The notes under the pieces: model-generated
Told to the model about the DNA's origin: nothing
The model's input: the letters and a program-made list of their open reading frames with translations, nothing else
Databases searched by the model: none
NCBI GenBank assembly: GCA_003140175.1
Contig: PLJD01000043.1
Span: forward strand, 13,271 to 77,270
DNA: 64,000 bases
Source: Actinomycetota bacterium
GTDB lineage: Bacteria > Actinomycetota > Acidimicrobiia > IMCC26256 > PALSA-555
Reading direction: 5' to 3'
Shown: piece after piece, positions 30,818-60,455 of the stretch
How the letters are laid out: the number at the start of each line of letters is the position of its first letter
Numbering within the stretch: position 1 is the first letter of the stretch
Program-made: the position numbers and the translations under genes

Positions 30818-30843
30818 GCGCCCCGAAGCTGCGATCGCGAGCC

Positions 30844-32013
30844 ATGGACCCGATGTCACGTCACGACCACCGCTTCCGCGACGAACTGCGCGGCTGGCTC
30901 GCGGAGCATGCGCCGCCCGACGTCGAGATCGCGGCGACGCCCGAAGAGGCCGAGGTGCTGCGCGAGTGGCAGCGAACGCTGCACACGGGACGATGGGTCG
31001 GGATCAACTGGCCGGTCGAGTACGGGGGACGCGGCGCGTCGCTGACGCAGGTCGCCATCTACAACGAGGAGCTGGCACACGCGTCGGCACCCCAGATCCT
31101 CGGGCGCGCGGGCGTCAGCCTGGTGGGGCCGACCTTGATGGCGCACGGCACCGCGGAGCAACGCCGGCGGTGGATGCGGAGGATCCTGTCCGGCGACGAC
31201 ATCTGGTGTCAGCTGTTCAGCGAGCCCGACGCAGGGAGCGACCTCACCGCGCTCTCAACGCGCGCAGACAAGCGCGGCGGGGTCTACGTCGTGACAGGTC
31301 AGAAGGTCTGGTCGTCGCACGCGCGCTTCGCGGACTGGGGAATCGCGCTGGTGCGCACCAATCCGACCGCACCCCGGCACAAGGGGATCTCGATGCTGGC
31401 GATCCCAATGACGGCGAAGGGCGTGGATGTCCGCCCGTTGCGCCAGATCACCGGCGAGAGCGAGTTCAACGAAGTGTTCCTCGACGGCGTGGACATCCCC
31501 GTCGAACATCTTATTGGTCCCGAGAACGAAGGTTGGGCCGTCGCCGGCACGACACTTGCCAACGAGCGCGGCGCCACGTTCGTGTGGAAGGAGCAGGTCC
31601 TGGCCTCGCTGGCCTTCGACCTGCTGTCGAAGGCATCTGCACGCGGTGGGCGCGACCGCGATCCGATCGCACGCCAGCGCCTCGCGCAGGCGTGGATCGA
31701 AGTCGAGATCTTCCGCCTCCACAACGGGCGCACGCTCGCGCGCCTGGCTCGTGGCGAGGAGCTCGGTTCGGAGTCGAGTCTCGTGAAACTGTTCTGGGCG
31801 GGGATGAGCCAGCGGCTGTACGAGACCGCCGTCGCGATACTCGGGTCCGACGCGCTGCTCATGCCCGAGGACGAACGCGCCCTCGATCGGGGGCGCTGGC
31901 CCTTGGGTCTGCTCGCGTCGCGTGCCAACTCGATCATGGGTGGGACAAGCGAGATCCAGCGCAACATCATCGGCGAGCGTCTCCTTGCGCTTCCGCGGGA
32001 GCCGAGAACGTGA
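30844..32013 (+). CDS. acyl-CoA dehydrogenase
   Basis: Motifs WCQLFSEPDAGSDL, GQKVWSS and GGTSEIQRNIIGERLL. ATG at 30844. Confidence 0.9.
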   Translation: MDPMSRHDHRFRDELRGWLAEHAPPDVEIAATPEEAEVLREWQRTLHTGRWVGINWPVEYGGRGASLTQVAIYNEELAHASAPQILGRAGVSLVGPTLMAHGTAEQRRRWMRRILSGDDIWCQLFSEPDAGSDLTALSTRADKRGGVYVVTGQKVWSSHARFADWGIALVRTNPTAPRHKGISMLAIPMTAKGVDVRPLRQITGESEFNEVFLDGVDIPVEHLIGPENEGWAVAGTTLANERGATFVWKEQVLASLAFDLLSKASARGGRDRDPIARQRLAQAWIEVEIFRLHNGRTLARLARGEELGSESSLVKLFWAGMSQRLYETAVAILGSDALLMPEDERALDRGRWPLGLLASRANSIMGGTSEIQRNIIGERLLALPREPRT

Positions 32014-33266
32014 AGCCGCATCGAGTGTGCGACGACATCGACGTACTCGAGCTCGTCGATCCCGAGCGCTACGCACGCCGCGGCTATCCGCACGACGTGT
32101 GGACGCGGTTGCGAGCAGAGGCGCCGGTCGCGTTCTTTACCCCGGAAGGGTTCGAGCCGTTCTGGGCCATTACGAAGCATGCCGACATCCTGGAGATCTC
32201 GAAGCAGCCGTTGCGATTCTCGAGCGCGCAGGGAATCACGCTGCGTCCTGCCGGTGTGGTGTTCCCGCCGTCGGAGATGGTCGTCATGCTCGATCCGCCG
32301 CGGCACGGCCCGATGCGCCGGGTCGCGAACGCGGGGTTCACGCCGCGAGCGGTACGAGGGCGCCGCAACGACATCGAGCGGATCGCCGTCGAGCTCCTCG
32401 ACGGAGCGATGCCTGTCGGCGCGTCGGGAGAGCTCGACTTCGTCGAGCGCATCGCGGCCCCGTTCCCGCTCGGGGTGATCGCCTGGATCCTCGGCGTGCC
32501 GAGGGACGACTGGGAGCGGCTGTTCCGCTGGACGAACGAGGTGATCGGCAAGGACGATCCGGAGTACCGCCGCCCAGGCGAGAGCCCGGGCGCCACCAGT
32601 AAGCGCGCACGCGGCGAACTCCATGTCTACTTCGACGAGATGATCGCGCAGCGTCGCAGCGTTCCTCGGGACGACCTGGTCAGCGAGCTGATCGAGGCCG
32701 AGGTCGACGGGGCCCGCCTCAGCACAGAGCAGCTGGTCTCATACTGCGAGCTCCTCGTCGAGGCCGGCAATGAGACCACGCGCAACGCGGTCAGCGGGGG
32801 CCTGCTCGCCTTTTCCGAGGACCGCGGAGCATGGGAGAAGCTCCGTGAACACCCGGAGCTGCTTCCGGATGCAGTCGAGGAGATCCTGCGCTGGGTCAGC
32901 CCCATCAGCCACTTCACCCGCACGACCACCGAAGACTGCGAGGTACGAGGGACGAAGATCAGCGCAGGCGAGCAGGTAGCGCTGTACTTCGCGTCGGCAA
33001 ACCGCGACGAGGAGGTGTTCGACTCCCCGTTCGAGTTCCGAGTCGATCGCAGCCCGAACCCTCATCTCGCGTTCGGCTTCGGCGAGCACTTCTGCATGGG
33101 CGCGCACGTCGCCCGAGTCGAGCTCGAGACGATCTTTCGCCACCTGCTGACGCGCCTGGAGTCGTTCGAGCTGTCGGGTCCGGTCCAGCGTCTGACCTCG
33201 ATCGTCAATGGCAGCATCAAGCACTTGCCGTTCAGCTACAGCACGAAGGAGAGTCCCACAACGTGA
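32010..33266 (+). CDS. cytochrome P450 (N-terminus reminiscent of CYP124/125/142-type lipid or sterol hydroxylases)
   Basis: Motifs FGFGEHFCMGAHVAR, EAGNETTR, EEILRW and FWAITKHADILEISKQPLRFSS. GTG at 32010 overlaps the ACAD stop (GTGA). Only the last 418 codons of track ORF 30537..33266 are credible. Confidence 0.9.
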   Translation: MKPHRVCDDIDVLELVDPERYARRGYPHDVWTRLRAEAPVAFFTPEGFEPFWAITKHADILEISKQPLRFSSAQGITLRPAGVVFPPSEMVVMLDPPRHGPMRRVANAGFTPRAVRGRRNDIERIAVELLDGAMPVGASGELDFVERIAAPFPLGVIAWILGVPRDDWERLFRWTNEVIGKDDPEYRRPGESPGATSKRARGELHVYFDEMIAQRRSVPRDDLVSELIEAEVDGARLSTEQLVSYCELLVEAGNETTRNAVSGGLLAFSEDRGAWEKLREHPELLPDAVEEILRWVSPISHFTRTTTEDCEVRGTKISAGEQVALYFASANRDEEVFDSPFEFRVDRSPNPHLAFGFGEHFCMGAHVARVELETIFRHLLTRLESFELSGPVQRLTSIVNGSIKHLPFSYSTKESPTT

Positions 33267-34823: not shown

Positions 34824-35966
34824 ATGCTTCGCGACGATGTCCAGCTGATCTCCGTCGACGACCACGTCGTCGAGCCGGCGCACGTCTTCACGGCGCACAT
34901 CGAGCCCAAGTTCCGGGACCGCGCCCCCCGCATCGCCGACCGTGACGGAGTCGAGGGGTGGGTGTGGGAGGACCGCTTCTACCCACTCTCGTTCCAGGGG
35001 AACGCCCAGACGCGCCGGTTCCGCAAGGGTGAGGCGGGCCGTGGCGAAGACCTCTTCGCCCGGCGGTACGAGGACATGGTCCCGGCGGCCTACGACGTGC
35101 ACGAGCGGATCCGGGCGATGGACGACGACGGCGTGACGGCCGAGCTGCTGTTCCCAACGTTCCCCCGCTTCGGCGGCACGCAGTTCCTCGAGGCACACGA
35201 CACGGAGCTCGCGCTCGCGATGGTCCGCGCGTGGAACGACTGGATGATCGACGAGTGGTGCGCGGCCTATCCGAATCGGTTCATCCCGCAGACGCTCGTC
35301 CCTCTGTGGGACGTGCCCGCGGCGGTCGCCGAGATCGAGCGCTGTGCCGCCAAGGGCTCGCGCGCGGTCCTGTTCGTCGAGAACCCGCACCCGCTCGGGC
35401 TGCCGTCGTTCCCGACCGGGCACTGGCGCCCGGTGTTCGAGGCGTCCGCCGCCACGGGTCTGCCGCTCTCGATGCACATCGGGACCTCCATGGGCCTGAT
35501 CCGGCCATCGCCCGAGACAACGCCGTCAGTCGGCATCGCGCTCTGCGGCATCAACTCGATGAGCGCGCTCGGCGACCTCATCTTCAGTGGCGCGTTCAAC
35601 GGCCTGCCCGACTCCCGGGTCGCGCTGTCCGAAGGCGGGGCCGGCTGGGTGCCGTACGTCCTCGCGCGCCTCGACTACACGTGGGAGCGCAGCCGCCTTG
35701 AGGGTCTGGAGAACCCGGTGCCGCCTTCGGAGGTATTCGCCGAGCACGTCTGGGTGTGCATGATCTCCGACCGCTACGCCATCCGGAACCGTGACCTGAT
35801 CGGTGTCGACAAGATCATGTGGGAGGCCGACTTCCCGCACAACGACTCGAACTGGCCGAACAGCCGCAAGGTCCTCGCGGACACGTGTGCCGACGTCCCC
35901 GATGAGGAGGTCCGACGCATCGGCGAGGAGAACGCGCGGGGGCTCTACCGGTTCCCGCGCCCGTGA
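34824..35966 (+). CDS. amidohydrolase, PF04909 type
   Basis: ISVDDHVVEPAHVF at the N-terminus, with WEADFPHNDSNWP near the C-terminus. Confidence 0.9.
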   Translation: MLRDDVQLISVDDHVVEPAHVFTAHIEPKFRDRAPRIADRDGVEGWVWEDRFYPLSFQGNAQTRRFRKGEAGRGEDLFARRYEDMVPAAYDVHERIRAMDDDGVTAELLFPTFPRFGGTQFLEAHDTELALAMVRAWNDWMIDEWCAAYPNRFIPQTLVPLWDVPAAVAEIERCAAKGSRAVLFVENPHPLGLPSFPTGHWRPVFEASAATGLPLSMHIGTSMGLIRPSPETTPSVGIALCGINSMSALGDLIFSGAFNGLPDSRVALSEGGAGWVPYVLARLDYTWERSRLEGLENPVPPSEVFAEHVWVCMISDRYAIRNRDLIGVDKIMWEADFPHNDSNWPNSRKVLADTCADVPDEEVRRIGEENARGLYRFPRP

Positions 35967-36118
35967 CCGCGTCCCTCTCAGTTGCGCTCCCCACCTACTC
36001 GGCCGACGACCCCGGGACGTGGGACCACCTCTTCGACCTCGCGCGGGCGGCCGACGCGGTGGGCATCGATCGGGTCGTGGTCTCCGACCACGTCGTGTTC
36101 CGTGAGAACCTCGACGCC
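35963..36118 (+). pseudogene. 5-prime stub of a luciferase-like (LLM, F420-type) oxidoreductase gene
   Basis: The first ~52 codons, LSVALPTYSADDPGTWDHLFDLARAADAVGIDRVVVSDHVVF, are a typical LLM N-terminus. GTG overlaps the amidohydrolase stop (GTGA). After about 36118 the frame becomes low-complexity Arg/Ser/Pro text until the stop at 36379. Confidence 0.5.
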
Positions 36119-36350
36119 TACTGCCGCGCGTCGGCGAGCACCGCACAGGGCCACTCACCGAGGAACGAGCGGGACCCGGGACGTGTCCTTGGCCCAGGTC
36201 CGAGGAGGCCGCCGTCCGGCGGCGAGATCGGGAGGTCGAACTGCTCGAGCTGGCTCCCGAAGCCCGGGTGGAACCACATGCCGCCGGGACGGGTGACCTC
36301 CGCTTCCACCTCAAGCGCCTTCCGGCATGAGCCACGCGCATCGTTCGGAC

Positions 36351-36605
36351 GTGGATCCGCGTGCTGTGCTCAATCCTGAAGTGGTGAAGGCGATCAAATC
36401 CCCTCCGGCGATTTGACCGCCAGATCCTTTCCGCCGCTGCGCGGAACCGTCGGGTGGACTCTTCCGCCCTCCGATGCCGTCGAACGGACGGACTACGCCG
36501 TCCCGGGCGATCCGGAGGTGCCGGTGCGAGGTGCGCCGGCCCAAGCGGCCTGACGGCGTCCCGCCGTGCGTGCACTCAGCCGGGTCGGGTGACGTGTCTG
36601 TTAGA
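36351..36605 (+). pseudogene. decayed paralog of the esterase gene at 10330..11277
   Basis: VDPRAVLNPEVVKAIK / IPSGDLTARSFPPLRGTVGWTLPPSDAVERTDYAVPGDPEVPVR / RRPKRPDGVPPCVHSAGSGDV aligns with residues of the intact esterase (IPFDEITAEILPSLRGAVGVELPLSDAVERIDHVVPGDPEVRVRVHRPKGVDGVLGCVYSMHGGGYV). It needs at least two frame changes, near 36397 and 36520. The HGGG motif is lost and the catalytic part is absent. Confidence 0.6.
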
Positions 36606-36866
36606 GCAGCGTGGCAGCGGTCGGTGCCGACCGGGGCCGCTTTGAAAGCCCCGAGACCGTCGTCGTGCTGCCGGCTTCGCTCCCGAGGACGGCGATTCAG
36701 GGCCACCCGGAGTGGGTTCGATTCATTCGGCAGCGGAGGTTTGACGCAGCGCGACTGGCGGTGAGGCGACGCAGGTGTTACACCATGCCCGGCGCGGGCT
36801 GCGGTTTCTCGAGCCACGGAGACGTGGCCCAGGCCAGTCAGAACGATCGTCACGGGGGGTTCGGCG

Positions 36867-38168
36867 ATGTCGGAGGCTCGGGTGCGTAGTCGCCAAGTGG
36901 GGCGTCGGGTGGCGGCGCTCGTTGCAGTGCCGCTGATGGTCACGCTGGTCGGTGTCTCCGGGGCGGGCGCCCAGCAGACCCCGGTCAACCAGCCCGGGGT
37001 GACAGCGACCCAGATTCGGGTCGGTGGGGTGGCAACCGTGACGGGCGACCCGACGGGCAACACGGACGGGACCGCCTTCGACGGCACGAACGCGTACTTC
37101 GACTACGTCAATTCGACGCAGGGAGGGGTCTGCGGACGCAAGCTTGTCCTTGCCTCGAAGCGCGACGACATGCTCTCGAACAACCGGGCGCAGGTGCAGG
37201 GGCTGATCAGCGAGGACAACGTGTTCGCGGTGCTCCCGGTCGCGACCACCCTCTTCACCGGCTCGAGCCTGCTGGCTTCGAACAAGATCCCGACGTTCGG
37301 TTGGGATATCCAGGCGGACTGGGGCTCTGAGGCCAACGATCCGGGACCGTCCAACTTGTTCGGTGCGGTCGGTTCCTTCATCAACTTCAGTACACCGGGG
37401 CCGACAGCATTCCCGGATCTCTTCCTGGCGAGGAAGCTCGGGGTCAAGCGCGTTGGCCTGGTCGCGTACAACGTCGCTCAGTCGGCGCAGGCTGCCGACG
37501 TCGTCGAGGCGACGTTCAACAAGTATCCCGGAGCAAAGGTCGTCTTTAAGGACACCAGCCTCCCGTTCGGCGGTGTGGATTACAGCGCCGACGTCGCTCG
37601 AATGGTTCAGGACAAGGTCCAACTCGTGATCCCTTCGCTCGATTCAAACGGCGCGTTCCTGCTCGCCCGCGAGATGAGGAGGCAGGGCCTCAACGTCCCG
37701 ATGATTCTGCCAAACGCGTACAACCAGCAGCGGGTCGCGGCGAACGCCCAGGTTGCCAATGGGAGCTATGTCTTCCTCCAGTTCGCACCATTCGAGACCA
37801 AGTCCAAGCCCCAGGGACTGCAGCTCTACTTGACATGGATCAAGAAGAGCGGCGGCCAGCAGACCGAGAACTCCGTCTACGGCTGGCTCAATGCCGACCT
37901 GTTCGTCACTGGTCTCAAAGCCGCGGGGTGCAACTTCACGCGCCAGAAGCTGGTTGACGCCATCAACCAGCTGAAGAGCTACAACGCCATGGGGTTCATC
38001 CCCCCGGTCAATTGGACCACGGCCCACTCGCAAGGCAACGGCTGTTTCGCGTTCGTGAAGGTCGTGAACGGAAAGTTCCAGCCCGTCTTTACCCAGCCGG
38101 GCAAGCCGTTCCTGTGTATTCCGGCGGGCAGCACTTCGATTCCCGCAAACCCGCAAGCTGTCGGATAG
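36867..38168 (+). CDS. ABC transporter substrate-binding protein, LivK / Peripla_BP_6 type
   Basis: Signal-peptide-like N-terminus RRVAALVAVPLMVTLVGVSGAGAQQ, followed by GVTATQIRVGG...YFDYVN..GGVCGRKL. Confidence 0.9.
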   Translation: MSEARVRSRQVGRRVAALVAVPLMVTLVGVSGAGAQQTPVNQPGVTATQIRVGGVATVTGDPTGNTDGTAFDGTNAYFDYVNSTQGGVCGRKLVLASKRDDMLSNNRAQVQGLISEDNVFAVLPVATTLFTGSSLLASNKIPTFGWDIQADWGSEANDPGPSNLFGAVGSFINFSTPGPTAFPDLFLARKLGVKRVGLVAYNVAQSAQAADVVEATFNKYPGAKVVFKDTSLPFGGVDYSADVARMVQDKVQLVIPSLDSNGAFLLAREMRRQGLNVPMILPNAYNQQRVAANAQVANGSYVFLQFAPFETKSKPQGLQLYLTWIKKSGGQQTENSVYGWLNADLFVTGLKAAGCNFTRQKLVDAINQLKSYNAMGFIPPVNWTTAHSQGNGCFAFVKVVNGKFQPVFTQPGKPFLCIPAGSTSIPANPQAVG

Positions 38169-38216
38169 CGAAAGGTCGGTGCCAGGCCAGCACGTGCCGA
38201 ACGGGCCACGGGCGCC

Positions 38217-40226
38217 GTGACCGAGTTACTCGGGTATGTCATTCGTGGCATCCCGTACGGCTGCGTGTTCGCGCTCGTCGCGATCGGCCTCGTGCTCACG
38301 TACAAGACGTCGGGCGTGTTCAATCTGGCCTTCGCCGCCCAGGCCTACGCGTCTGCCGCCGTCTACTTCCAGTTGCGGGCGAACGACGGGTGGTCGATCA
38401 TCCCGGCGTTCCTGATCGCGGTGATCGTTGTCGCTCCGCTCCTCGGCTTGGCGCTGGACCGGTTCCTGTTCCGCCATCTCCGCACGGCACCGACCGTCGC
38501 GAAGCTGGTCGTGTCGCTCGGCCTGCTGGTGGCGATCCCGGAGATCGTGAACCTGTGGTTCGGCAGTGGCCCGGCGTACGGGCCCCCGACGATCTGGCCG
38601 AGCGAGTTCGCGATCTACCACTTCGGCAGCTACGCCATCGACGGCAACCAGGCCGCCACCATGATCGCCACCGCCGTGTCGGTCGTGGGCCTGACGCTGC
38701 TCCTTCGCTACTCGACCATCGGGCTCCGGATGCGGGCGGTGGTCGAGAGCCCGAGGATGACCGCGCTCACCGGCATCAACGCCGACCGGGTCAGCGGGTT
38801 CGCGTGGATGCTGTCGAGCCTGTTCGCCGGTCTGGCGGGCGTCCTGCTCGCTCCGCTCTTTGACCAGTTGACGGTGTCGAGTTTCACCGTGCTGCTCGTC
38901 GCCGCGATCGCCGCGGCGGCGTTCGCGCGGCTGACGAGCATCCCGCTCGCGCTCCTCGGCGGTCTGCTGCTGGGGATCCTGCAAGGCATCCTCGCCGGGT
39001 ACCTCCCGGTCAACAGCGTCCTGGCGACCGGGTTGCGTCCGTCGCTGCCGTTCGTCGCGCTGTTCCTGCTCCTGCTGTTCTGGCCCGGCCTCCGGCAGAA
39101 GCGCGAGCTCACCGACCCGCTCTCGGGCGTCGACCCGCCGCCGCCCGGCCTCGCCGCGGCGCTGCGCAGCCGCGGGCTCACCGTCACCGTCCGCGCGCTC
39201 GGTGTCGCGGTCGTGCTGGCCGGTCTCGGTGTGGCCCTGTTCGCCCTGGACTCGTTCTGGCTGCTGATCGTGACGGAGGCCGTCGTGTTCTCGGTGATCT
39301 TCCTGTCGATCACCGTCATCACCGGCATGGCGGGCCAGATCTCGCTGTGCCAGGCAGCCTTCGCCGCGGTGGGCGGCTTCACCACCGCGGAGCTCGTCCA
39401 CAACTTGGGACTCCCGGTGCTCCTCACCGTGGCCATCGGCACCGTGTTCGCCGCGATCGTCGGCGGCCTCCTGGCGATCCCGGTGCTCCGTCTCAGCGGC
39501 ATCTATCTCGCGCTTGCCACCCTGGCCTTCGCGCTGATGTTCGACAGCATCTTCGTCCCGCTCAAGTGGGTCGGCGGCGGGCTCCTCCCGATCAACGTGC
39601 CGCGCCCCGCGTTCCTCGCGGGTGACCACGCGTTCTTCCTATTCAGCGTGGCGGTGCTGGTCGGCGTCGGGGTCGTTGTGATCCTTGTGCGCCGCGGCGT
39701 CAGTGGAAAGTTTCTGCAGGCCTTGCACGGCAGCGAGACGGCCTCGGCGTCGCTCGGGATCAACGCGACCCGGGCGCGAGTCGTCGCGTTCGCGCTCTCA
39801 GCCGGCATCGCTGGACTGGGCGGCGGCCTGCTCGCCATGCTGCAGAGCCAGACCAACTACACGGGGAACTTCACGCCGTTCGCCGGGCTGTTCTGGCTGG
39901 TTCTCGTCGTGACGCTCGGGTGCCAGACCGTCGAGGGCGCGATCCAGGCCGGCCTGGCGTTCGCCCTGCTCCCCCAGCTGTTCCAGCGGTTCGGGATCCC
40001 GCTCGAGTACCAGTACATCCTCTTCGGGCTCGGCGCGCTCACGTACGCGAGGAACCCCGAGGGGATCCTCGAGGCCCTGAAGCGCAAGCAGCTCGTCGCC
40101 GTCCAGCGAGCCCTCGATCGGCGCAAGCGCCGAGCCGAGCGGGGCGCCGTCCACGGGCGAGACGCCGGGCCGCCCACCGTCCCGCGGCCGGCGGCGACCG
40201 CGACCCCGAAGAAGGGGGGCTCGTGA
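38217..40226 (+). CDS. branched-chain-amino-acid-type ABC permease, LivH-LivM fusion
   Basis: 669 aa. The first half (GIPYGCVFALVAIGLVLTYKTSGVFNLAFAAQ) is LivH-like and the second half (ITVITGMAGQISLCQAAFAAVGGF) is LivM-like. Confidence 0.9.
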   Translation: MTELLGYVIRGIPYGCVFALVAIGLVLTYKTSGVFNLAFAAQAYASAAVYFQLRANDGWSIIPAFLIAVIVVAPLLGLALDRFLFRHLRTAPTVAKLVVSLGLLVAIPEIVNLWFGSGPAYGPPTIWPSEFAIYHFGSYAIDGNQAATMIATAVSVVGLTLLLRYSTIGLRMRAVVESPRMTALTGINADRVSGFAWMLSSLFAGLAGVLLAPLFDQLTVSSFTVLLVAAIAAAAFARLTSIPLALLGGLLLGILQGILAGYLPVNSVLATGLRPSLPFVALFLLLLFWPGLRQKRELTDPLSGVDPPPPGLAAALRSRGLTVTVRALGVAVVLAGLGVALFALDSFWLLIVTEAVVFSVIFLSITVITGMAGQISLCQAAFAAVGGFTTAELVHNLGLPVLLTVAIGTVFAAIVGGLLAIPVLRLSGIYLALATLAFALMFDSIFVPLKWVGGGLLPINVPRPAFLAGDHAFFLFSVAVLVGVGVVVILVRRGVSGKFLQALHGSETASASLGINATRARVVAFALSAGIAGLGGGLLAMLQSQTNYTGNFTPFAGLFWLVLVVTLGCQTVEGAIQAGLAFALLPQLFQRFGIPLEYQYILFGLGALTYARNPEGILEALKRKQLVAVQRALDRRKRRAERGAVHGRDAGPPTVPRPAATATPKKGGS

Positions 40227-41767
40227 CCCTGCTCGACGCCCGCGGCATCACGAAGCGCTTCGCCGGCATCATGGCGCTCGACGAGGTGTCGCTGTCCGTC
40301 AAGCCGGGCGAGGCCGTCGCGCTGATCGGGCCGAACGGCGCTGGGAAGACCACGCTGTTCAACTGCCTGTTCGGGATGCTGCGACCCGACAGCGGCACCG
40401 TCGTGTTCGACGGCCGCGACATCACGCGCGCGCCGGTGTACCGGCGAGCCCGACTCGGACTGGGTCGAACCTTCCAGCGGGCCGAGCTGTTCAGCGGCAT
40501 GAGCGTTCGCGATCACCTGCAGATCGCGGAGTGGGCCCGGCGCGGCGCCGGGCGCCTCTGGAGGGACTGCCTCAACCTCTCCAAGCCCACCGCCGAGCAG
40601 CGTCAGCGAGTCGACCAGATGCTCGAGCTGCTCGGGCTGGAGGATGTCGCGGATCGGCCGGTCGATTCGCTGAGTCTCGGGCGCGGCCGCCTCGTCGAGC
40701 TCGGGCGGGCGCTGATGACCGACCCCGCGCTGCTGCTGCTCGACGAGCCATCGTCCGGGCTCGACCAGCACGAGACGCGGGAGATGGTCGGCGCGCTCCA
40801 GGAGGTGCAGCGCCAGAGCGGCACCGCGGTGCTGCTCGTCGAGCACGACGTCGAGATGGTCCAGGCCTTCGCAACCCGGCTCTACGTCCTCGACTTCGGC
40901 CGGCTCATCGCGCAGGGCGGAACCGCTGAAGTCATGACGGACGACGGAGTCCGCCGGGCGTACCTCGGCGAGCTCACCACCGTCCATCCGAACGATCGTG
41001 CGGGGGAACAGCCGGCCGCGGCGGGGGAGCCGCGCCAGGACCAGGCGGGGGCGGGTTCGCCGCTCCTCGAGGTGCGCGACGTCGAGGCAGGCTACGGGCC
41101 GTTTCGCGCGGTGTTCGGGGTGTCGTTCTCGGTCGCCGACGGTGGCGTCACGGCGCTGCTCGGCGCGAACGGCGCCGGGAAGACAACGATCGCCCGCGTC
41201 GTCTCGGGGCTGATCCCCGCCACGGCCGGCCAGGTGGTCTTCGACGGCGTCGACATCACCCGGATGAAGCCGTGGCGCATCGCGCCGCTCGGCATCGTGC
41301 ACGCGCCCGAAGGACGTTCCGTGTTCGGCTCGCTCACCGTCGAGGAGAACCTCACCCTGGACTTCCGGCGCAACCTCGGCCGGGCCGGCGTCGCGCCCGG
41401 CCTCGACCGAGCCGTCGAGCTTTTCCCGCGCCTGGGCGATCGGCGCAAGCAGCTGGCGGGAACGCTGTCGGGTGGCGAGCAGCGCATGCTCTCGCTCGCC
41501 CGCGTGCTCGTCCGCTCACCCCGCTTGCTCATCGTCGACGAGCTCTCCCTGGGCCTGGCCCCGCTCATCATCGACGAGATCTACGCCACCCTGGAGACCG
41601 TGCGGCAGGCGGGCACCACGCTGCTGCTCATCGAGCAGTACGTCGGGCACGCGCTGAGGATCGCCGACGCCGCCGTGCTGCTCCAGCACGGCGAGGTCGT
41701 CTACGACGGGTCGGTCGCCGCGCTCGGTGACGTCAGCGAGCGGCTGCTCTCAGCCCGCCGCCCCTGA
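40223..41767 (+). CDS. ABC transporter ATP-binding protein, LivG-LivF fusion (two NBDs)
   Basis: Two Walker A sites (GPNGAGKTT and GANGAGKTT), two signature motifs (LSLGRGR and LSGGEQR) and an Ala/Gly/Pro-rich linker. GTG at 40223 overlaps the permease stop (GTGA). Confidence 0.9.
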   Translation: MTLLDARGITKRFAGIMALDEVSLSVKPGEAVALIGPNGAGKTTLFNCLFGMLRPDSGTVVFDGRDITRAPVYRRARLGLGRTFQRAELFSGMSVRDHLQIAEWARRGAGRLWRDCLNLSKPTAEQRQRVDQMLELLGLEDVADRPVDSLSLGRGRLVELGRALMTDPALLLLDEPSSGLDQHETREMVGALQEVQRQSGTAVLLVEHDVEMVQAFATRLYVLDFGRLIAQGGTAEVMTDDGVRRAYLGELTTVHPNDRAGEQPAAAGEPRQDQAGAGSPLLEVRDVEAGYGPFRAVFGVSFSVADGGVTALLGANGAGKTTIARVVSGLIPATAGQVVFDGVDITRMKPWRIAPLGIVHAPEGRSVFGSLTVEENLTLDFRRNLGRAGVAPGLDRAVELFPRLGDRRKQLAGTLSGGEQRMLSLARVLVRSPRLLIVDELSLGLAPLIIDEIYATLETVRQAGTTLLLIEQYVGHALRIADAAVLLQHGEVVYDGSVAALGDVSERLLSARRP

Positions 41768-41776
41768 CGCTCTCTC

Positions 41777-41798
41777 GGCCAGGGCTCAGGGCCCGGCC
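41777..41798 (+). terminator. GC-rich imperfect hairpin, possible intrinsic terminator
   Basis: GGCCAGG-GCTCAGGG-CCCGGCC gives 6 paired positions with one mismatch, 10 nt after the ATPase stop. No U-tract follows. Confidence 0.2.
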
Positions 41799-41851
41799 TC
41801 GACCCGACGGAACGCTCGCGAGCGCGCAGGATCAGGTAGAGGATCCCGAAA

Positions 41852-41873
41852 GGTGGGAGACGCTCCCCATCGT
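41852..41873. repeat. 22-nt exact copy of the 3-prime end of the P450 gene (21167-21188)
   Basis: GGTGGGAGACGCTCCCCATCGT is identical at both sites, in the same orientation. Confidence 0.75.
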
Positions 41874-41874
41874 T

Positions 41875-42039
41875 TCTCCGAAGACCCGTCCCGACGTTGA
41901 GGCTGTACGGATCCGCCAGCGTGAACTGCATGGTGAGTGGCCGCGGCGTGACCTGGGGCCAGACGTCGGCGCCGACAGCCAGCCGCTGCTCCTGCAGCTT
42001 GACCGGCTCCAGATGCTTCCCGCCCGGTGCCGCGAACAG
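41875..42039. repeat. 165-nt near-identical copy of an internal piece of the D-aminoacylase-family gene (23775-23938)
   Basis: Hand alignment shows about 98% identity with one inserted C. Track ORF 41701..41931 (minus) reads MQFTLADPYSLNVGT, identical to the aminoacylase protein. Confidence 0.9.
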
Positions 42040-42242
42040 TCGACGAGGTCTACACGACTCTGGAGACGGTGCGGCAGGCGGGGACGACCCTCCTCCTCAT
42101 CGAGCAGTACGTTGGCCACGCGCTGAGGCTCGCCGACTCGGTCGTGCTCCTCCAGCACGGCGAGGTCGTCTACGACGGATCGGCCGCCGCCCTCGGCGAC
42201 GTCTCCGAGCGACTCCTCTCGGCCAGCCCGCAGCTGACGTAG
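42040..42242 (+). pseudogene. 3-prime remnant (67 codons) of a second LivF-type ATPase gene
   Basis: DEVYTTLETVRQAGTTLLLIEQYVGHALRLADSVVLLQHGEVVYDGSAAALGDVSERLL parallels the C-terminus of the intact ATPase (41571-41767). I estimate about 85% nt identity, with mostly third-position differences. No Walker motifs and no start context. Confidence 0.75.
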
Positions 42243-42372
42243 ACCGTGGCTGGTGATCGCCGGCCTCTCGCGTTACTTCTCGAAACCCATGACCGGTCAG
42301 CAGGTTGGCGTCGACGGTGCTGCTCTCTGTAGGCGCCGATTCGGGACGGGCCTGTGAAGCCGAGAAAGAGCG

Positions 42373-43647
42373 TCAGCCGGTCGGTGTGAACTCGAGTTGC
42401 AGCGTCCGGAGACCACGGAGGATGAACGTGGGCACGTACTCGTAGCGGCGAGCGCCCGCGGGGCCGTGTGCCGTCTCCGAGATCCGGAGGTCCGAGGCGC
42501 GGGCGAGCAGTCGCTCGATGCTCACGCGGGTCTCCGCTCGAGCCAGCGGCGCGCCGGGACAGAAGTGGGTGCCGTGCCCGAACGCAAGGTGCTGCCGCGC
42601 GTTCGCGCGGCCGACGACGACCTCGTCCGGGTGCTCGAACTGGCGCGGGTCTCGGTTCGCGGCACCGTTCAAGACCATCACCGTGGTGCCCGCCGGGAGC
42701 TCGACACCGCCGACAGTCACCGGCACGCGTGACAGGCGGAAATCCCCCTTGACCGGGCTCTCGACCCGCAGGGTCTCCTCGATGAAACCGGGGATCCGGT
42801 CACGCTCGTCTCGCAGGAGCTGCTGGAGGTCGGGACGCTCGGCAACGAGCTGGAGTGCCGAGGCGAGGAGGCGCACGGTCGTCTCCTGGCCGGCGGCGAA
42901 GAGGTTCGCCGCGACGCGAACGACGTCGATGACCTCAGGCGTCGAGCCGTCGGGAAACGTCGCGGTCGCAAGACTGGTCAGCACGTCGTCGTGAGGCTCT
43001 CGCCGACGCTGCTCGACATACTCGGTGAAGCGCTGATAGAGGAACTCCAGCGGGTTCTGGGCCATGGCGTGGTCGGTGCTCCCGATCGCGCCGCCCCGGC
43101 GGTGACCACCGAGCTCCGCTCGGAACGTCTCGTGGTCGGACTCGGGCACGCCGAGGAGATCGGCGATGACCAGCATGGTGAACGGTCCCGCGAACTCGCT
43201 GATGAACTCGCATTCGCCCCGTGCGAGGAACTCGTCGATCTGACGGTCGGCGAGGCGCCACATGGACGCCTCGTTCTCGCGGAGGCGCTTCGGTGTGAGC
43301 AGGCGCATGAGTAATGCCCGGTGATCGGTGTGCGTCGGCGGATCGAGCGTCGGCAGCTGGTCGCTCATCGGCAGCTCGTCGCGGTGCTCCTCGATGAGCG
43401 CGCTCACGTCGTCGCCTTCCAGCGCGACGGGAAACCCCGGGAACGGTCCGCTCACGGAGTTACACGACGAGAATGCCACCGTGTCGTGGTACACCTCGAG
43501 GGCTTCCTCGTACCCGGTGACCATGACGACGTCGTGGTGCGTCTCGCGCTGCACCGGGCAACGCTCACGCAGAACATCGAAGTAGGGGTAGGGGTCGGCG
43601 ACGAGGGACTCGTCGCGGAAGAAGTCGACCGCGTCGAAGTCGTTCAC
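42373..43647 (-). CDS. cytochrome P450
   Basis: Motifs FGHGTHFCPGAPLAR, AAGQETTV and EETLRV. GTG start overlaps the upstream stop. Paralog of 29537..30817. Confidence 0.9.
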   Translation of the reverse strand: MNDFDAVDFFRDESLVADPYPYFDVLRERCPVQRETHHDVVMVTGYEEALEVYHDTVAFSSCNSVSGPFPGFPVALEGDDVSALIEEHRDELPMSDQLPTLDPPTHTDHRALLMRLLTPKRLRENEASMWRLADRQIDEFLARGECEFISEFAGPFTMLVIADLLGVPESDHETFRAELGGHRRGGAIGSTDHAMAQNPLEFLYQRFTEYVEQRRREPHDDVLTSLATATFPDGSTPEVIDVVRVAANLFAAGQETTVRLLASALQLVAERPDLQQLLRDERDRIPGFIEETLRVESPVKGDFRLSRVPVTVGGVELPAGTTVMVLNGAANRDPRQFEHPDEVVVGRANARQHLAFGHGTHFCPGAPLARAETRVSIERLLARASDLRISETAHGPAGARRYEYVPTFILRGLRTLQLEFTPTG

Positions 43648-44858
43648 AGGGCCGCTCCCGTGACCTTGTGCTCGATGATCTCGTCGTATGTGAGACCGAG
43701 CTCCAACAGGACCTCATCGGTGTGCTCACCATGTTCCGGAGCGCCACGCACCGCGGGAGCCGTCTCGTCGAACTGCACCGGATTCGCGGGGAGCGCGAAC
43801 TCGGCACCGCTCGTCGCGGTCAGCGTCTCGAGATACCCGTTCGCCACTACCTGTGGATCGTCGTGCACTTCGAGCGGTGTCTGCATCGGCGCCCACACGC
43901 CTTGGAGGGTCTGGAGGCGATCGCACCACTCGGCGTACGTCCGGGTGCGGAAGACGTCCCGGAGGACCTCGATGCACTCGCGCCGGTGCTCGAATCGCGC
44001 CGCCGCGTCCGCGAAGCGAGGATCGTCGAGGAGATCGGGACGCTCGAGATGCGCGCACAGGTCCGGCCAGAACCGGTCGGACTGGAGCAGCACGATCGTG
44101 ATGAAGCGTCCGTCCTTCGTCGGGTACGTACCGACGAGCGGATTCGGGATCGAGTCGCGATCGAAGGTCGGGATGTCGATGCCTTCGTAGAGCTTGGCCG
44201 AGGTCACTTCGGGAGCGAGGCTCCAGAGCCCCATGCCGAGCAACGACACGTCGACCACGGATGGGGTCCCGGTGCGCTCGCGCCGCACCAGCGCAGCCGC
44301 GATGCCGCCCGCGATGGTCAAGCCGCCGAGCACGTCGCCGAACGCGGGCCGCTGGTCGACCGGCCAACTGGCCTTCGGGTCCTTGAAGGCCATCGCCAGA
44401 CTCGCACGGGCCCAGTACGACGCGCCGTCGAACCCACCGCGACCCGCTTCGGGGCCACGCGGTCCTGTGGCCGAGCCACGCACGTAGATGGCGTGAGGGT
44501 TGCGGGCGCGGATGTGCTCGACATCGATGCCGAGCCGCGCCCGTACGTCGGGGAGGTGATTCGTGACAAACACGTCGGCCGTCTCGACCAAGCGGTAGAG
44601 CAGCTCGCGCCCAGCGTCGGACGAGAGGTCGAGGCCGACGGACCGCTTGCCGCGGTTCGGTACCTCGAACATGAAGTTGACGCCGGTGTCCCCCGGCACG
44701 AGCCCGGACGAGACCAAGCCGCGCTGCGGATCTCCGTGCGCGGGGTGCTCGACCTTGATCACGTCGGCGCCCCACTCGGCGAGGACGGCACCGGAGATCG
44801 GCACGAACGTCCAGGCCGCCACCTCGACGACCCGGATCCCTGCCAGCACGTCCTGCAT
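43644..44858 (-). CDS. family III CoA-transferase (CaiB/BaiF/alpha-methylacyl-CoA-racemase family)
   Basis: MQDVLAGIRVVEVAAWTFVPISGAVLAEWGADVIKVEHP. The ATG at 44858 is preferred to the GTG at 44918. Confidence 0.85.
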   Translation of the reverse strand: MQDVLAGIRVVEVAAWTFVPISGAVLAEWGADVIKVEHPAHGDPQRGLVSSGLVPGDTGVNFMFEVPNRGKRSVGLDLSSDAGRELLYRLVETADVFVTNHLPDVRARLGIDVEHIRARNPHAIYVRGSATGPRGPEAGRGGFDGASYWARASLAMAFKDPKASWPVDQRPAFGDVLGGLTIAGGIAAALVRRERTGTPSVVDVSLLGMGLWSLAPEVTSAKLYEGIDIPTFDRDSIPNPLVGTYPTKDGRFITIVLLQSDRFWPDLCAHLERPDLLDDPRFADAAARFEHRRECIEVLRDVFRTRTYAEWCDRLQTLQGVWAPMQTPLEVHDDPQVVANGYLETLTATSGAEFALPANPVQFDETAPAVRGAPEHGEHTDEVLLELGLTYDEIIEHKVTGAAL

Positions 44859-44970
44859 CGCAGCCCTTTCGCGCGCCCCGCCGCGGCCGGACGGGCTATT
44901 GGCGGTTACCGCATTCACACTCTAGGAGAGGGAGATTTCCACAGCAATCGGCCCCCTGCTGGACCGTGCT

Positions 44971-45948
44971 TCACAGCTCGATCAGGGTCGGGACGCTTCG
45001 GGCCGCGACCAGCCGCCGGCCGACATCCACCACGATCTCGTCGGCTGATCCGAAGACTCCTTCGAGGGCCATGGTCCGCTTCAGGTACCGGTGGAAGGGG
45101 TGGTCGGTGGTGAAGCCGATGCCCGCCAACACCTGCTGGCAGTGGGCGGTGACGGTCCGGTTCGTCCGGCCGGCGATCGCCTTCGCGACCGCCGCCGTGT
45201 CGGGACTCGACTCGTCCCACGCGGCGCACACGCTCGCCTCGAGGGCCTCGACGGCCACCAGGGAGTCGGCCAGCCGGTGACGGACGGCCTGGAAGCCTGC
45301 GACCGGGCGACCGAACTGCACCCGATCCAGGGCGTGGGCGCGCGCCAGGTCGAGCATGGCCCGGTCGGCTCCTGCGATCTGACGTGCCACGGCGCGTCGA
45401 CCGCACGCGACCGCCGCGTCCCAGGTGGCGGTGGCGAGCGGCACCGCATCCGCTGCAGGAACCTCCCCCCGGACCAGACGCAGCCCGCCGTCGGGATCGA
45501 CGCCGTACACAGCGCCGACGTCTGCGACGGTCCGCGGCACGGTCACGGTCCGGAGCTCCACCCCCGCGGCGCACACGACCAGGAGCTCGGCTGCGGTCGC
45601 GGCTCGTACGGAGGCGATTCCGCGCAGGTGCACCCGGTCGCCATCGAGGGACCCCGGCGGTCCCCACCCGGCGAACCAGGGGAGGAGGACGGCGAGGTCG
45701 GGGCGCGGCTGCGCGCCAAGGCCGGCTGCGAGCACGTCGTCGAGGACTGTCGCCGTGGCGTTGGTGCGGCCGAGCGCACCGAACACGATCTCGATCGCGT
45801 CGCGTGGCTCGGCGCACAGCATCTCCCGCCATCCGATCCGGACGAGGGCCTCGTCGACGGCTGCACGGTCGTCGGTCGAGGCCGACGCGTCCGCGATCGC
45901 GTCTTCGACCGTCGACCGGAGCAGCGCCCGCTCCGCATCTTCCATCAT
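44971..45948 (-). CDS. acyl-CoA dehydrogenase family protein, short beta-type subunit
   Basis: 325 aa. It shows only C-terminal-domain similarity (RVQFGRPVAGFQAVRHRLAD...GIGFTTDHPFHRYL). ATGA overlap with the upstream full-length ACAD. Confidence 0.8.
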   Translation of the reverse strand: MMEDAERALLRSTVEDAIADASASTDDRAAVDEALVRIGWREMLCAEPRDAIEIVFGALGRTNATATVLDDVLAAGLGAQPRPDLAVLLPWFAGWGPPGSLDGDRVHLRGIASVRAATAAELLVVCAAGVELRTVTVPRTVADVGAVYGVDPDGGLRLVRGEVPAADAVPLATATWDAAVACGRRAVARQIAGADRAMLDLARAHALDRVQFGRPVAGFQAVRHRLADSLVAVEALEASVCAAWDESSPDTAAVAKAIAGRTNRTVTAHCQQVLAGIGFTTDHPFHRYLKRTMALEGVFGSADEIVVDVGRRLVAARSVPTLIEL

Positions 45949-47132: not shown

Positions 47133-47899
47133 GGGCGCGGGAGACCGATCGGACGGGGCGTCACGGTGACGGATGGCACCGACATGCTCGAGCCGCCCCG
47201 GAGCACCGTCTCGACGATGTTCACGAGCTCGTCGACCTCGATGAGTGAACCGCTCAGATAGCTGCGCGCGATCCACAGCGGGTGGAGCTCAGCGGCCAGG
47301 TCCTGGTCCCACCCGCGAGCGAACGCCGTCGTCGAGTCGCCATCCCCGCCGGCACAGTCGCCGACGACGAGACGGGTGAAGCCGATACCGCCGTGCTCCG
47401 CGCGCCAGGCCTCGACCAGTTTGTCGAGTGCCGCTTTGCTCACTGCATAGGCACCGAGGCCGGGCCAGGGAGGCGTGAGCGACGCGCTGACCGAGGACAG
47501 GTAGACCGCGGCTCCCGCCGACTCGGCGAGGTGGGGGAGCGCGGCGGTCGTGACGAGCGCCGCGCCCGTCACGTTGGTGTCGAAGACACGACGCCACGTG
47601 TCGGCGTCGGTGTCGGCAAGCCGTGCCAGCGGGCCGATCCCGGGCGCGTAGACGAGGGCGTCGATCCCGCCGAGCCCGGTCGCCGCTTCCGTGATGGCCA
47701 CCCCGCAGGATCCGGCGTCGGTGACGTCGCACTCGATCGCCAGTGCACCCGAACCGGCCTCCTCGGCGGCGGCCTCGAGTCGTTGCCGCCGTCGGGCCAG
47801 CAGCGCAACCCGCGCACCCCGTTCCGCGAGCCCGATCCCGATGCAGCGCCCGAGACCGCTCGAGGCGCCAACGACGACGGCCCGCAACGGTCGCTTCAT
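47129..47899 (-). CDS. short-chain dehydrogenase/reductase
   Basis: AVVVGASSGLGRCIGIGL and YAVSKAAL. Paralog of 15262..16020. Confidence 0.85.
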   Translation of the reverse strand: MKRPLRAVVVGASSGLGRCIGIGLAERGARVALLARRRQRLEAAAEEAGSGALAIECDVTDAGSCGVAITEAATGLGGIDALVYAPGIGPLARLADTDADTWRRVFDTNVTGAALVTTAALPHLAESAGAAVYLSSVSASLTPPWPGLGAYAVSKAALDKLVEAWRAEHGGIGFTRLVVGDCAGGDGDSTTAFARGWDQDLAAELHPLWIARSYLSGSLIEVDELVNIVETVLRGGSSMSVPSVTVTPRPIGLPRP

Positions 47900-48713: not shown

Positions 48714-49847
48714 TTAGGCGGTCGGAAGGCCGAGGATCCGCGTGGCGACGATGTTCTTCTGGATCTGCGATGTACCACCCATCACGCTCTGGGCGCGGCT
48801 GTACAGGTAGACGTTCAGGCCCAGGTCGTCGGAGTCGAGCACCGCCCGCGAACCCGAGACGCCAAGGGCCGCCGTGCCGACGGTCTGCTCGACCCACGTC
48901 ATCAGGAGCTTGTCGACGGAGCCGCCTGGCCCGTGCTCGACACCGTCCAGTCGCTCGGACAGGCGTCGGCGGACGTGCAGGCGGAGCATCTCCGCCTGCA
49001 CGTAGGCCCAGGTAACTTGCTCTCGCTGGTCGCTCCGGAACGCGCTCGGGCTCGCACGCACCGCGCGCTCCATCTCGTTGACGGTCTTCGCGTACCGGGC
49101 GACGTACCCAAGCTCGCCAGGCTCGCGTTCATGGCTGACGATCGTCATGGCGATGCGCCACCCCTCGCCGGGCTCGCCGATCATATTCTCGGCGGCAACG
49201 CGTGCGCCGTCGAAGTGCACCTGTCCGAACTCGGTGGTGATGCCGTTGATCATCCGCAGTGGCCGTTGCTCGATGCCGGATTGGTCCATCGGCAACGCGA
49301 ATGCCGACAGCCCTTTGTGCTTCGGCACATCGGGATCGGTGCGCGCGAGGAGGAAGCACCAGTCGGCGACGTCGGAGTAGCTCGTCCACACCTTGTGACC
49401 GTTGATCACGTAGTCATCGCCGTCACGCGTGGCCGTGGTGCGCAGCGACGCCAGGTCTGAGCCAGCGTCGGGCTCACTGAAGCCCTGGCACCACCGCTGG
49501 CGCCCACTGATCAGGCCGGGCAGGAACCGATCCTTGATCGCGTCGCTCCCGTGCGCCGTGATCCCCTGGACGAGGTACCCGAGGCTCGGGCGCGGTGGTG
49601 CGCCGGCGGCCGCGAGCTCGTCGTCGAGGATCACGTCGAAGACCGTCGGCAGGTCGTGACCGCCGAAGCGGGCGGGCCAGCTCAGGCCGAAGAAGCCGGC
49701 GTCGTAGAGCGCGGTGTGCCACTCGGCCTGTCGGACCCAGTACTCGTCGTTGGTCGAGGAGGCCGGCAAGCCCAGGTTGTGCTCGGCGAGCCACGCGCGT
49801 AGCCGGCTCCGGAACTCAGCTTCCGCCGGCGAGTCACGGAAGTCCAT
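48714..49847 (-). CDS. acyl-CoA dehydrogenase (alpha-type)
   Basis: Motifs WCQGFSEPDAGSDL, GHKVWTS and GGTSQIQKNIVATRILGL. ATG at 49847 overlaps the upstream gene by 14 nt. Confidence 0.9.
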   Translation of the reverse strand: MDFRDSPAEAEFRSRLRAWLAEHNLGLPASSTNDEYWVRQAEWHTALYDAGFFGLSWPARFGGHDLPTVFDVILDDELAAAGAPPRPSLGYLVQGITAHGSDAIKDRFLPGLISGRQRWCQGFSEPDAGSDLASLRTTATRDGDDYVINGHKVWTSYSDVADWCFLLARTDPDVPKHKGLSAFALPMDQSGIEQRPLRMINGITTEFGQVHFDGARVAAENMIGEPGEGWRIAMTIVSHEREPGELGYVARYAKTVNEMERAVRASPSAFRSDQREQVTWAYVQAEMLRLHVRRRLSERLDGVEHGPGGSVDKLLMTWVEQTVGTAALGVSGSRAVLDSDDLGLNVYLYSRAQSVMGGTSQIQKNIVATRILGLPTA

Positions 49848-59350: not shown

Positions 59351-59501
59351 CGCGGTTCCGAGCTGACGGGGCTGGGCTTCCCGAGATGAGGCACGCGCGC
59401 TTCCCTTCGCCGGGCCCGTCCGGGCAGCGGACGGTCTCGCGAGCGAAGATAACATACCTTTCCAATCACGAGAAGATCGTTTCCACCCAGGGGGCTGCGA
59501 G

Positions 59502-60455
59502 ATGCGCGTCGGCATGATGGTGGGTCCGGAGCGAGGCCGCTACGCGGCCAAGGTCGACCGGCTCCGAGCTGACGGTCGGTGGGCCGAGGACGCCGGCCTC
59601 GCGTCGGTCTGGATCCCCCAGATCCCCGATGACTTCGACGCCTTGACCGCCGTCGCCGTCGTCGCCGCGGACACGACGCGGATCGAGATCGGTACCGCGG
59701 TGGTCCCAATCCAACCTCGCCATCCGATCGCGCTCGCGCAGCATGTGCTGTCGGTCCAGGCGGTGTGCGACGGACGTCTCGCACTCGGTCTCGGCGTGTC
59801 GCACCACTGGGTTATCGACACGATGCTCGGGTTGCCCTACGAGCGACCCGCGTCGACCATGCGCGCGTACCTCGACGTCCTCGATCAGGCACTCCGCGGA
59901 AACGGCAATGTGGATGTCGAGAACGAGGTGTTCCGCGTGCACAACCCGCTCGACATCACTGACATCGCTCCCACCCCGGTCCTGCTCGCTGCGCTGGGTC
60001 CGGTCATGCTCCGATTGGCCGGTGAGCGGACCGACGGGACCATCCTGTGGATGGCCGACGAACGGGCGATCGGTTCGCACGTCGTCCCGACCATCACGCA
60101 CGCGGCCGAGGCGGCGGGACGGCCGGCACCGCGCGTCGTCGCCGGCATCCCGGTGTGCCTCTGCGGTGACGACGAGGTCGACGTCGCCGAAGCGCGGGCG
60201 AACCGCATCCTCGCCGAGGCGGAGATGTCGCCGAACTATCAGCGGTTGCTTGAGCACGGCGACGCTCGAAATGTCGGCGACATCCTCGCGGCGGGGAGCG
60301 AGGCGACGATCGAGCAGCGGTTGCGTTCCTTCGCCGACGCCGGCGTCACAGACATCTCGGTCCGGGTCATGCCGATCGGTCAGGGCCGAGACGAGCTCGT
60401 GGCGTCCTACCAACGGACGCGGGCCTTCGTCGCGGCACTCACCGAGCGTCTCTGA
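59502..60455 (+). CDS. luciferase-like monooxygenase family, F420-dependent-oxidoreductase type
   Basis: 317 aa with MRVGMMVGPE...AGLASVWIPQIPDDFDALT...GLGVSHHWV. Length and layout fit LLM class proteins. Confidence 0.8.
   Translation: MRVGMMVGPERGRYAAKVDRLRADGRWAEDAGLASVWIPQIPDDFDALTAVAVVAADTTRIEIGTAVVPIQPRHPIALAQHVLSVQAVCDGRLALGLGVSHHWVIDTMLGLPYERPASTMRAYLDVLDQALRGNGNVDVENEVFRVHNPLDITDIAPTPVLLAALGPVMLRLAGERTDGTILWMADERAIGSHVVPTITHAAEAAGRPAPRVVAGIPVCLCGDDEVDVAEARANRILAEAEMSPNYQRLLEHGDARNVGDILAAGSEATIEQRLRSFADAGVTDISVRVMPIGQGRDELVASYQRTRAFVAALTERL

Follow-up and report, generated by a model that had tools for sequence, protein, structure and literature searches.

What process leaves the pieces of three genes side by side behind an intact operon? 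The question is raised by a patch of about 390 nt (positions 41852–42242) that lies directly downstream of a liv-type (amino-acid-type) ATP-binding cassette (ABC) transporter operon in an uncultured wood-associated lineage of the Acidimicrobiia. The window analysed is a 64,000-nt stretch of DNA from this lineage (assembly GCA_003140175.1, contig PLJD01000043.1). A first-pass annotation of its sequence had recognised in the patch the end of a cytochrome P450 gene, an internal piece of a D-aminoacylase-family gene (Amidohydro_3 in Pfam) and the end of a LivF-type ATPase gene. On balance, we favour the view that one liv-type operon was replaced here by another, and that the patch is the non-functional scar of this rearrangement. 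How many events took place, and in what order, is the main uncertainty.

Anatomy and reality of the patch

The three fragments were re-derived by BLASTN self-comparison of the window and by alignments, which reproduced the order and orientation described in the first-pass annotation (coordinates in Table 1). Fragment 1 matches the 3′ end of the P450 gene at 22 of 22 positions (E = 1.7e-5 with BLAST, using a 1-kb query against the window). This exact match had been noticed before, but its source had been placed one base off, at 21167–21188 instead of 21168–21189. The 22-mer encodes GWETLPIV within the P450 C-terminus STVRGWETLPIVTP, which is followed by the stop. Fragment 2 is identical to its source at 163 of 165 positions (98.2%), with two substitutions and one inserted C, in agreement with the earlier count of two substitutions and one inserted base over about 165 nt (about 98%). 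It has the same orientation as the source locus and, because the gene is on the minus strand, is antisense to Amidohydro_3. Fragment 3 is in frame for the last 66 residues of LivF and ends with a TAG stop (42240–42242). Over positions 42040–42239 it is 85.0% identical to 41571–41769, with 29 mismatches and one gap, as had been estimated (about 85%).

The sources of fragments 1 and 2 lie 2.6 kb apart and 18–20 kb upstream of the patch, and their order and orientation are preserved. In the self-comparison, the patch fragments are the sole short, near-identical displaced pieces within the 64-kb window; the remaining internal repeats are paralogues with 73–85% identity. All junctions are blunt. 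Microhomology is 0 nt at 41851/41852 and at 42039/42040, and a single untemplated T stands at 41874. The absence of insertion sequences, integrases and flanking repeats, stated previously, was borne out and extends to tRNA: no transposase or integrase gene was found in about 17–54 kb, no terminal repeat at the edges of the patch or of the transporter module, and no tRNA in the window. With neither machinery nor terminal repeats nor tRNA, a transposon-like structure or a tRNA integration site was rejected for both the patch and the module.

At least five metagenome assemblies from different samples and assemblers (L001, L002, L003, L089 and L090) run across the patch, and its sequence is 100% identical in all of them. 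Many contigs from one population, at least 99.9% identical to the window, encode the same P450 and LivGF proteins without a difference. Some short-read contigs stop in fragment 2 or shortly before it (L004, L091, L092 and L094 terminate inside it, L093 and L095 just upstream of the patch). The repeat thus confuses assemblers, which speaks for an assembly chimera formed there; contig ends are also what a true repeat would produce. A chimera has a negligible probability, since the junctions are 100% identical across samples and assemblers and since it cannot create the two substitutions and the indel by which fragment 2 differs from its source, contrary to what is expected of the same reads used twice. 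Moreover, one contig (L097) carries a variant of the patch. Misassembly, which the first-pass annotation had named as what could undo its account, is excluded, because independent assemblies agree, the copy has diverged from its source and a population variant exists.

Sources of the fragments and the resident operon

The P450 C-terminus is conserved in the L096 orthologue (STVRGWDAMPVFTA, followed by the stop) and in a paralogue, and the source of fragment 1 is therefore native. The intact Amidohydro_3 gene is found in a single context on 14 contigs. Where fragment 2 has its two substitutions and its indel, this gene has the same sequence as the L008 orthologue, so that all three changes are derived in the copy. 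The copy-specific change at position 41911 is still polymorphic in the population (L097). Over 3.2 kb, two of the three single-nucleotide polymorphisms (SNPs) between L097 and the window fall inside the 390-nt patch, and one of them exchanges V for D in the conserved HGEVVYDG motif of a 71-aa open reading frame (ORF). From these comparisons, fragments 1 and 2 are recent copies of intact genes, as had been proposed, and decay neutrally; the patch as a whole is probably drifting in the same way.

These changes also bear on whether the patch could be functional, as an antisense RNA, as a 71-aa small protein or as an operon terminator at 41855–41877, which is very improbable. The plus strand of fragment 2 is 98% complementary to the Amidohydro_3 mRNA and lies downstream of a plus-strand operon, a weak terminator-like match (a hairpin with a 5-bp stem and a T-run) was created at the joint of fragments 1 and 2, and the 71-aa ORF is predicted by gene callers (in L001–L005, L089, L090 and L097). 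However, the patch folds no better than shuffled sequences (z = +2.06), so that no stable RNA fold was detected in it, and an Rfam search of the patch gave no match. The copy-specific changes and two of the three population SNPs, including V to D in a conserved motif, fall within it. The ORF has no Pfam match, contains neither Walker A nor Walker B and is not homologous to any stand-alone family; its short database matches are frameshift-broken genes. It is judged to be a pseudogene remnant and not a gene, and the patch is almost certainly non-functional. That the 165-nt antisense piece, through read-through from the liv operon, would cross-regulate the Amidohydro_3 gene is far less likely.

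Fragment 3 differs from the resident ATPase tail mostly at third codon positions, as the first-pass annotation had remarked (15 of 23 differences in the first 165 nt). This is the mark of purifying selection, and fragment 3 therefore diverged as part of a working gene. The tails of the resident gene and of its homologues in L006 and L007 are about 95% identical to one another, fragment 3 is 85–88% identical to each of them, and L008 is farther, which corresponds to the tree ((resident, L006, L007), fragment 3), L008. Fragment 3 and the resident tail differ at 16 of 35 four-fold degenerate sites (46%), against 3 of 37 (8%) for the resident and L006 tails (Fisher p = 4e-4). Fragment 3 is thus the tail of a deeply diverged liv ATPase lineage, with a divergence of 'host-level' magnitude. 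No intact parent was found in a collection of 5.8 billion proteins searched with full-length LivGF and with the fragment-3 peptide. Short LivF-tail matches in the databases were considered as parents and rejected: they are genes broken by frameshifts in error-prone long-read assemblies (L096), or the patch itself (L097). The first-pass annotation had concluded from the contrast between fragments 2 and 3 that events of very different age were involved. This does not follow: the 85% identity measures the divergence of two liv lineages before they met and not the age of the junction.

The resident operon lies in a block that is about 90.6% identical at the nucleotide level to L006, L007 and L096. 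Beyond 36736 and 41783 the homology is abruptly lost, the right end-points falling at 41771–41783, and the flanks are unrelated across three different contexts in other Acidimicrobiia. Species-level divergence was approximated by that of neighbouring genes, in place of marker genes or whole genomes. Between the window and L006, four-fold sites differ by 24.9% in the liv binding protein gene, 17.1% in the permease gene and 12.1% in the ATPase gene, compared with 47.9% in the XDH gene (48.8% against L096, over part of the gene) and 58–61% in the P450 and mutase genes (against L006 and L096). The genome-level value between L006 and L096 is 12–14%. With 12–25% in the liv genes versus 48–61% in the others, the resident and L006/L007 operons must share an ancestor far more recent than that of the host genomes.

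It could be argued that liv genes simply evolve slowly. This is ruled out, as they saturate against L008 (44–56%) in the same way as XDH (51–53%), with 60% expected at saturation. A mosaic or a very recent tract inside the module was also rejected, the identity being uniformly 86–96%, as was a plasmid-borne vector, for which the only similarity was of the generic ABC-ATPase kind. By these comparisons the resident operon behaves as a discrete module that would have been exchanged laterally among Acidimicrobiia lineages.

The context of the module differs in the window. The XDH gene directly precedes the liv module in L006 (2116–9729) and L096 (3755–10282), whereas the XDH (MoCoBD) gene of the window (16474–18852) lies 18 kb from it. 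The 18-kb block in between (18.9–36.7 kb) holds the sources of fragments 1 and 2; it may be an insertion, possibly acquired along with the liv module. Gene debris is present on the left side of the module too, since an older remnant (36392–36590) adjoins that edge. This remnant is 76% identical in nucleotides and 63% in amino acids to the esterase gene 10222–11277, and sits in the 900-nt gap (35967–36866) upstream of the liv binding-protein gene. A 138-aa ORF (35963–36379, plus strand) overlaps the stop of an Amidohydro_2 gene. Its first 45 residues or so resemble an enzyme N-terminus, the rest is of low complexity and there is no Pfam match; it may be another truncated gene.

In L008 (10001–12439; ERZ25039534 contig_52499), the gene caller fused the ABC ATPase to an epoxide hydrolase (EH) in a protein of 812 aa (P0104). 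A frameshift error in this noisy long-read assembly probably accounts for the fusion. At the DNA level, livGF stops and EH starts within a shared GTGA, and EH is therefore translationally coupled to the liv operon there. This adjacency was examined as an ancestral liv–EH junction and rejected, as there is no P450-tail sequence at that place and fragment 1 is left unexplained.

Proposed displacement of an older operon and its alternatives

A same-orientation 3′ remnant of livF, from a deep lineage, thus lies 272 nt downstream of a resident operon. In the simplest reading, fragment 3 is the tail of an older, probably native operon that was displaced by the resident one. The older operon would have lost its 5′ 4.6 kb, that is, all but its last 200 nt. 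An illegitimate repair of a double-strand break, of the end-joining type, would have linked the incoming operon to the chromosome, and two short stretches of DNA, either the cell's own or incoming, would have been captured at the joint as filler, either as two pieces or as one piece of about 2.8 kb with a later internal deletion. A like-for-like replacement would have preserved the transport function, so that the event could fix in the population. One illegitimate joining event, or a few, is favoured, and all three junctions could date from the same recent event. Only tentatively do we go further and propose that the patch is the population-fixed footprint of a single end-joining repair, in which a break in the native homologous operon would have taken up a whole foreign operon of 5.1 kb and two small endogenous pieces.

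Neither of the two spacers, 41768–41851 and 42243–42372, gave a significant match as a further gene fragment in the window or in 94 other loci, and 42243–42372 does not match 41770–41851. About 68 nt of the former are possibly donor flank, and the latter is presumed to be the original downstream flank of the displaced gene.

The first-pass annotation had proposed that a copy of the 21.1–23.9 kb segment landed in a paralogous liv ATPase gene. The simple form of this model fails. It requires the 5′ part of that ATPase gene to the left of fragment 1, where the 3′ non-coding flank of the resident operon (41768–41851) is found instead. Extra deletions would be needed, and no second copy exists in the 14 contigs that carry the Amidohydro_3 gene.

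A fuller version, which we regard as possible but rather doubtful, is a segmental duplication that was trimmed stepwise by deletions. At the minimum, 21168–23938 would have been copied to a place between the resident and an older liv operon; in a tandem variant, 41851/21168 would be the new joint that arises when 21168–41851 is duplicated in tandem. Later deletions would have removed 21190–23774, and the stretch from 23939 into about codon 447 of the older ATPase gene. All three sources ascend on one strand (21168 < 23775 < 41571), as a tandem duplication predicts, fragments 1 and 2 derive from a single 2.8-kb span, and the region is prone to rearrangement, with block permutations relative to L006, L008 and L096. 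However, at least three independent illegitimate events are required, and their end-points must by chance have spared no more than 22 and 165 nt. If the duplication was purely tandem, fragment 3 and its flank should also be about 98% identical to 41571–41851, whereas fragment 3 is 85% identical and the flank is unrelated. No intermediate with a second Amidohydro_3 or EH copy was found in the 14 contigs or in 18 LivGF contigs, an absence that is weak evidence.

A further alternative is replication-based template switching, akin to fork stalling and template switching or microhomology-mediated break-induced replication (FoSTeS/MMBIR). A stalled or broken fork would have copied 22 nt, jumped 2.6 kb ahead, copied 165 nt and then continued in the older liv gene. 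Such a fork would produce short templated stretches, colinear and in the same orientation, from a locus about 20 kb away, but there is no priming microhomology (0 nt) at any of the three junctions and one T is untemplated; a weak, patchy 9/12 similarity 6–18 nt to the left of 42039/42040 is all that was found. Template switching is therefore considered improbable. The similarity in question is between the last 18 nt of fragment 2 (42022–42039) and 41553–41570, the resident-livF counterpart of the sequence that would have preceded fragment 3. It includes the 9/12 match, GCCYGGNNCCGC, and is statistically marginal. It could represent a short imperfect homology near an illegitimate joint.

Several points weigh against the displacement of an older native operon, or against its single-event form. 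No pre-event genome was found, the nearest relatives being either of the same population (at least 99.9%) or at least 8% diverged, and the number and order of events are therefore inferred. Alternatively, the resident operon may itself be native, with fragment 3 left over from a second operon that was paralogous or had been acquired earlier; the direction of transfer adopted here is tentative. The statistics of fragment 3 come from 35 four-fold sites only. Fragments 1 and 2 are colinear and share their orientation, for which a single captured segment and a later deletion account at least as well as two independent captures do. No Ku or LigD gene is present in the annotated part, which covers the 64-kb window and short related contigs and not the whole genome. 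Lastly, L009, the closest relative with the right-flank P450, has no liv gene beside it, which leaves the adjacency of the older liv gene to this P450 uncorroborated.

L009 (1–1829; Acidimicrobiia metagenome-assembled genome LejiaD_71_17) was the best match when a pre-event relative was sought through the right-flank P450 among GTDB genomes. It was rejected, as it shares the P450 only (85% amino acid identity) and homology stops at the P450 stop codon. Compared with 42372–45381 of the window, it has no CoA-transferase gene between the P450 and acyl-CoA dehydrogenase genes, and an unrelated convergent gene occupies the place of the patch and liv operon.

If displacement is accepted, the event resembles xenologous operon displacement in situ, in which a homologue acquired laterally from another lineage takes the place of the functional operon at a locus. 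Here the resident liv genes are far closer to their L006/L007 homologues than are the other shared genes. The concept of xenologous gene or operon displacement in situ, with the resulting mosaic operons, reportedly goes back to Omelchenko et al. in 2003. The term is in use (PMC9425974, PMC1274311). The present case differs in that a physical remnant and its junction are preserved and the join is illegitimate instead of homologous.

Scars of bacterial non-homologous end joining (NHEJ; Ku/LigD) share the blunt junctions, the single untemplated nucleotide, the inserts from the cell's own genome and the capture of foreign DNA without homology. In Streptomyces ambofaciens, pieces of the cell's own genome between 30 bp and 18.8 kb long, among them short ones of 30–83 bp, were found inserted where NHEJ had healed I-SceI breaks, and some of them originated close to the break (PMC5869714). 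In Sinorhizobium meliloti, NHEJ captures heterologous DNA, sometimes as two cassettes in tandem (PMC6379672). As in such scars, the inserts are copied from cellular DNA and the sources are left intact (21168–21189 and 23775–23938). The difference is that the scar is a natural, fixed event in uncultured Acidimicrobiia and not the product of an induced break, and that its single-event origin and the involvement of Ku/LigD are putative.

Homology-facilitated illegitimate recombination (HFIR) during natural transformation, reportedly described by de Vries and Wackernagel in 2002, also replaces recipient DNA by foreign DNA through at least one non-homologous joint, with a deletion in the recipient. 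It needs a homologous anchor on one side, and the illegitimate joint usually has 3–10 nt of microhomology. Here, neither module edge has an anchor and the junctions have no microhomology. Ordinary pseudogene fragments in catabolic islands, such as 36392–36590, are likewise truncated, unconstrained pieces between intact genes; the patch differs from them in that three pieces of different origin and age abut base to base and record the chemistry of the junctions. The scar is a new example of known processes, and no new kind of system or function is involved.

Junction-level records of operon swaps in bacteria are rare, because scars usually erode. Here the tail, the filler and the blunt joints survive, so the event can be read base by base, and the anatomy of the scar matches the products of experimental end joining in other bacteria. 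A replacement mediated by NHEJ between lineages too diverged for homologous recombination has been proposed from laboratory assays (PMC6379672, PMC5869714). If a single event did form the patch, it would be field evidence that NHEJ-type repair mediates like-for-like operon replacement beyond the range of homologous recombination. The locus is also a worked example of lateral operon exchange in a catabolic island of an uncultured lineage, of an 85% identity to a neighbour that need not imply an old local duplication, and of a 71-aa "gene" mis-called over debris.

Surroundings of the patch

The features of the patch, of its sources and of its neighbours are given in Table 1; the identities of the source and neighbouring genes were confirmed with Pfam.

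Table 1. Positions in the window of the patch, its sources and the surrounding features
Feature	Position	Strand	Description
Fragment 1	41852–41873	+	Copy of 21168–21189, 22/22; codons for GWETLPIV, P450 C-terminus
Orphan T	41874		Templated by neither source; adjoining position is C in both sources
Fragment 2	41875–42039	+	165-nt copy of 23775–23938, internal to Amidohydro_3 gene
Fragment 3	42040–42242	+	Last 66 codons and stop of LivF-type ATPase gene; starts just after Walker B
Source of fragment 1	21168–21189	+	3′ end of P450 gene 20000–21199; 7 nt upstream of EH start codon
Source of fragment 2	23775–23938	-	Within intact Amidohydro_3 gene 23066–24718
84-nt spacer after livGF stop	41768–41851		First ~16 nt still in module homology; other ~68 nt without match
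130-nt spacer	42243–42372		Between fragment 3 and convergent P450 gene
71-aa ORF predicted by gene callers	42027–42242	+	Spans end of fragment 2 and fragment 3
Resident liv-type ABC transporter module	36736–41783	+	Homology block; binding protein (SBP), LivHM, LivGF
Liv binding protein (SBP) gene	36867–38168	+	Pfam
Fused LivHM permease gene	38217–40226	+	Pfam
Fused LivG-LivF (LivGF) ATPase gene, 514 aa	40223–41767	+	Pfam
Older gene remnant at left module edge	36392–36590	+	Residues 52–117 of Abhydrolase_3 paralogue, frameshifted
P450 gene	20000–21199	+	Pfam; stop overlaps EH start by ATGA
Epoxide hydrolase (EH) gene	21196–22326		Start overlapped by P450 stop
Amidohydro_3 gene, intact, 550 aa	23066–24718	-	Pfam
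P450 gene convergent with patch	42373–43647	-	Pfam
CoA-transferase gene	43644–44918		Between right-flank P450 and acyl-CoA dehydrogenase gene

The window is a large catabolic gene island that is duplicated internally. It contains at least six cytochrome P450 genes in 64 kb (14045–15541, 20000–21199, 29537–30817, about 32600–33266, 42373–43647 and 58145–59515); 12521–14023 is a possible further one, its family assignment being putative. They are intermixed with genes for short-chain dehydrogenases/reductases (SDRs), Amidohydro_2 and Amidohydro_3 proteins, acyl-CoA dehydrogenases, thiolase/ChsH2-like proteins and CoA-transferases. Paralogous blocks with 73–76% nucleotide identity pair 42386–43641 with 30804–29564, 58248–59323 with 21096–20030, 47151–47880 with 15284–16013, and 63446–63958 with 8908–9426.

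A census of intergenic debris by tblastx was too noisy in this 68% GC DNA, the sole clean extra remnant being the one at the left edge of the liv module (36392–36590). Between the EH and Amidohydro_3 genes, a 118-aa ORF (22585–22941, minus strand) is called as a gene without Pfam match in L098 and L099. Its similarity to Sulfotransfer_3 is confined to the first 37 positions of that family and is below threshold (E = 4e-4); it, too, may be a truncated gene. In a 909-aa ORF (30537–33266, plus strand), the P450 domain is confined to the C-terminal third, and an upstream part (30865–31299) has translated similarity to 49398–49814 of the window and to L032. This ORF probably represents two genes, or a read-through artefact of GC-rich DNA.

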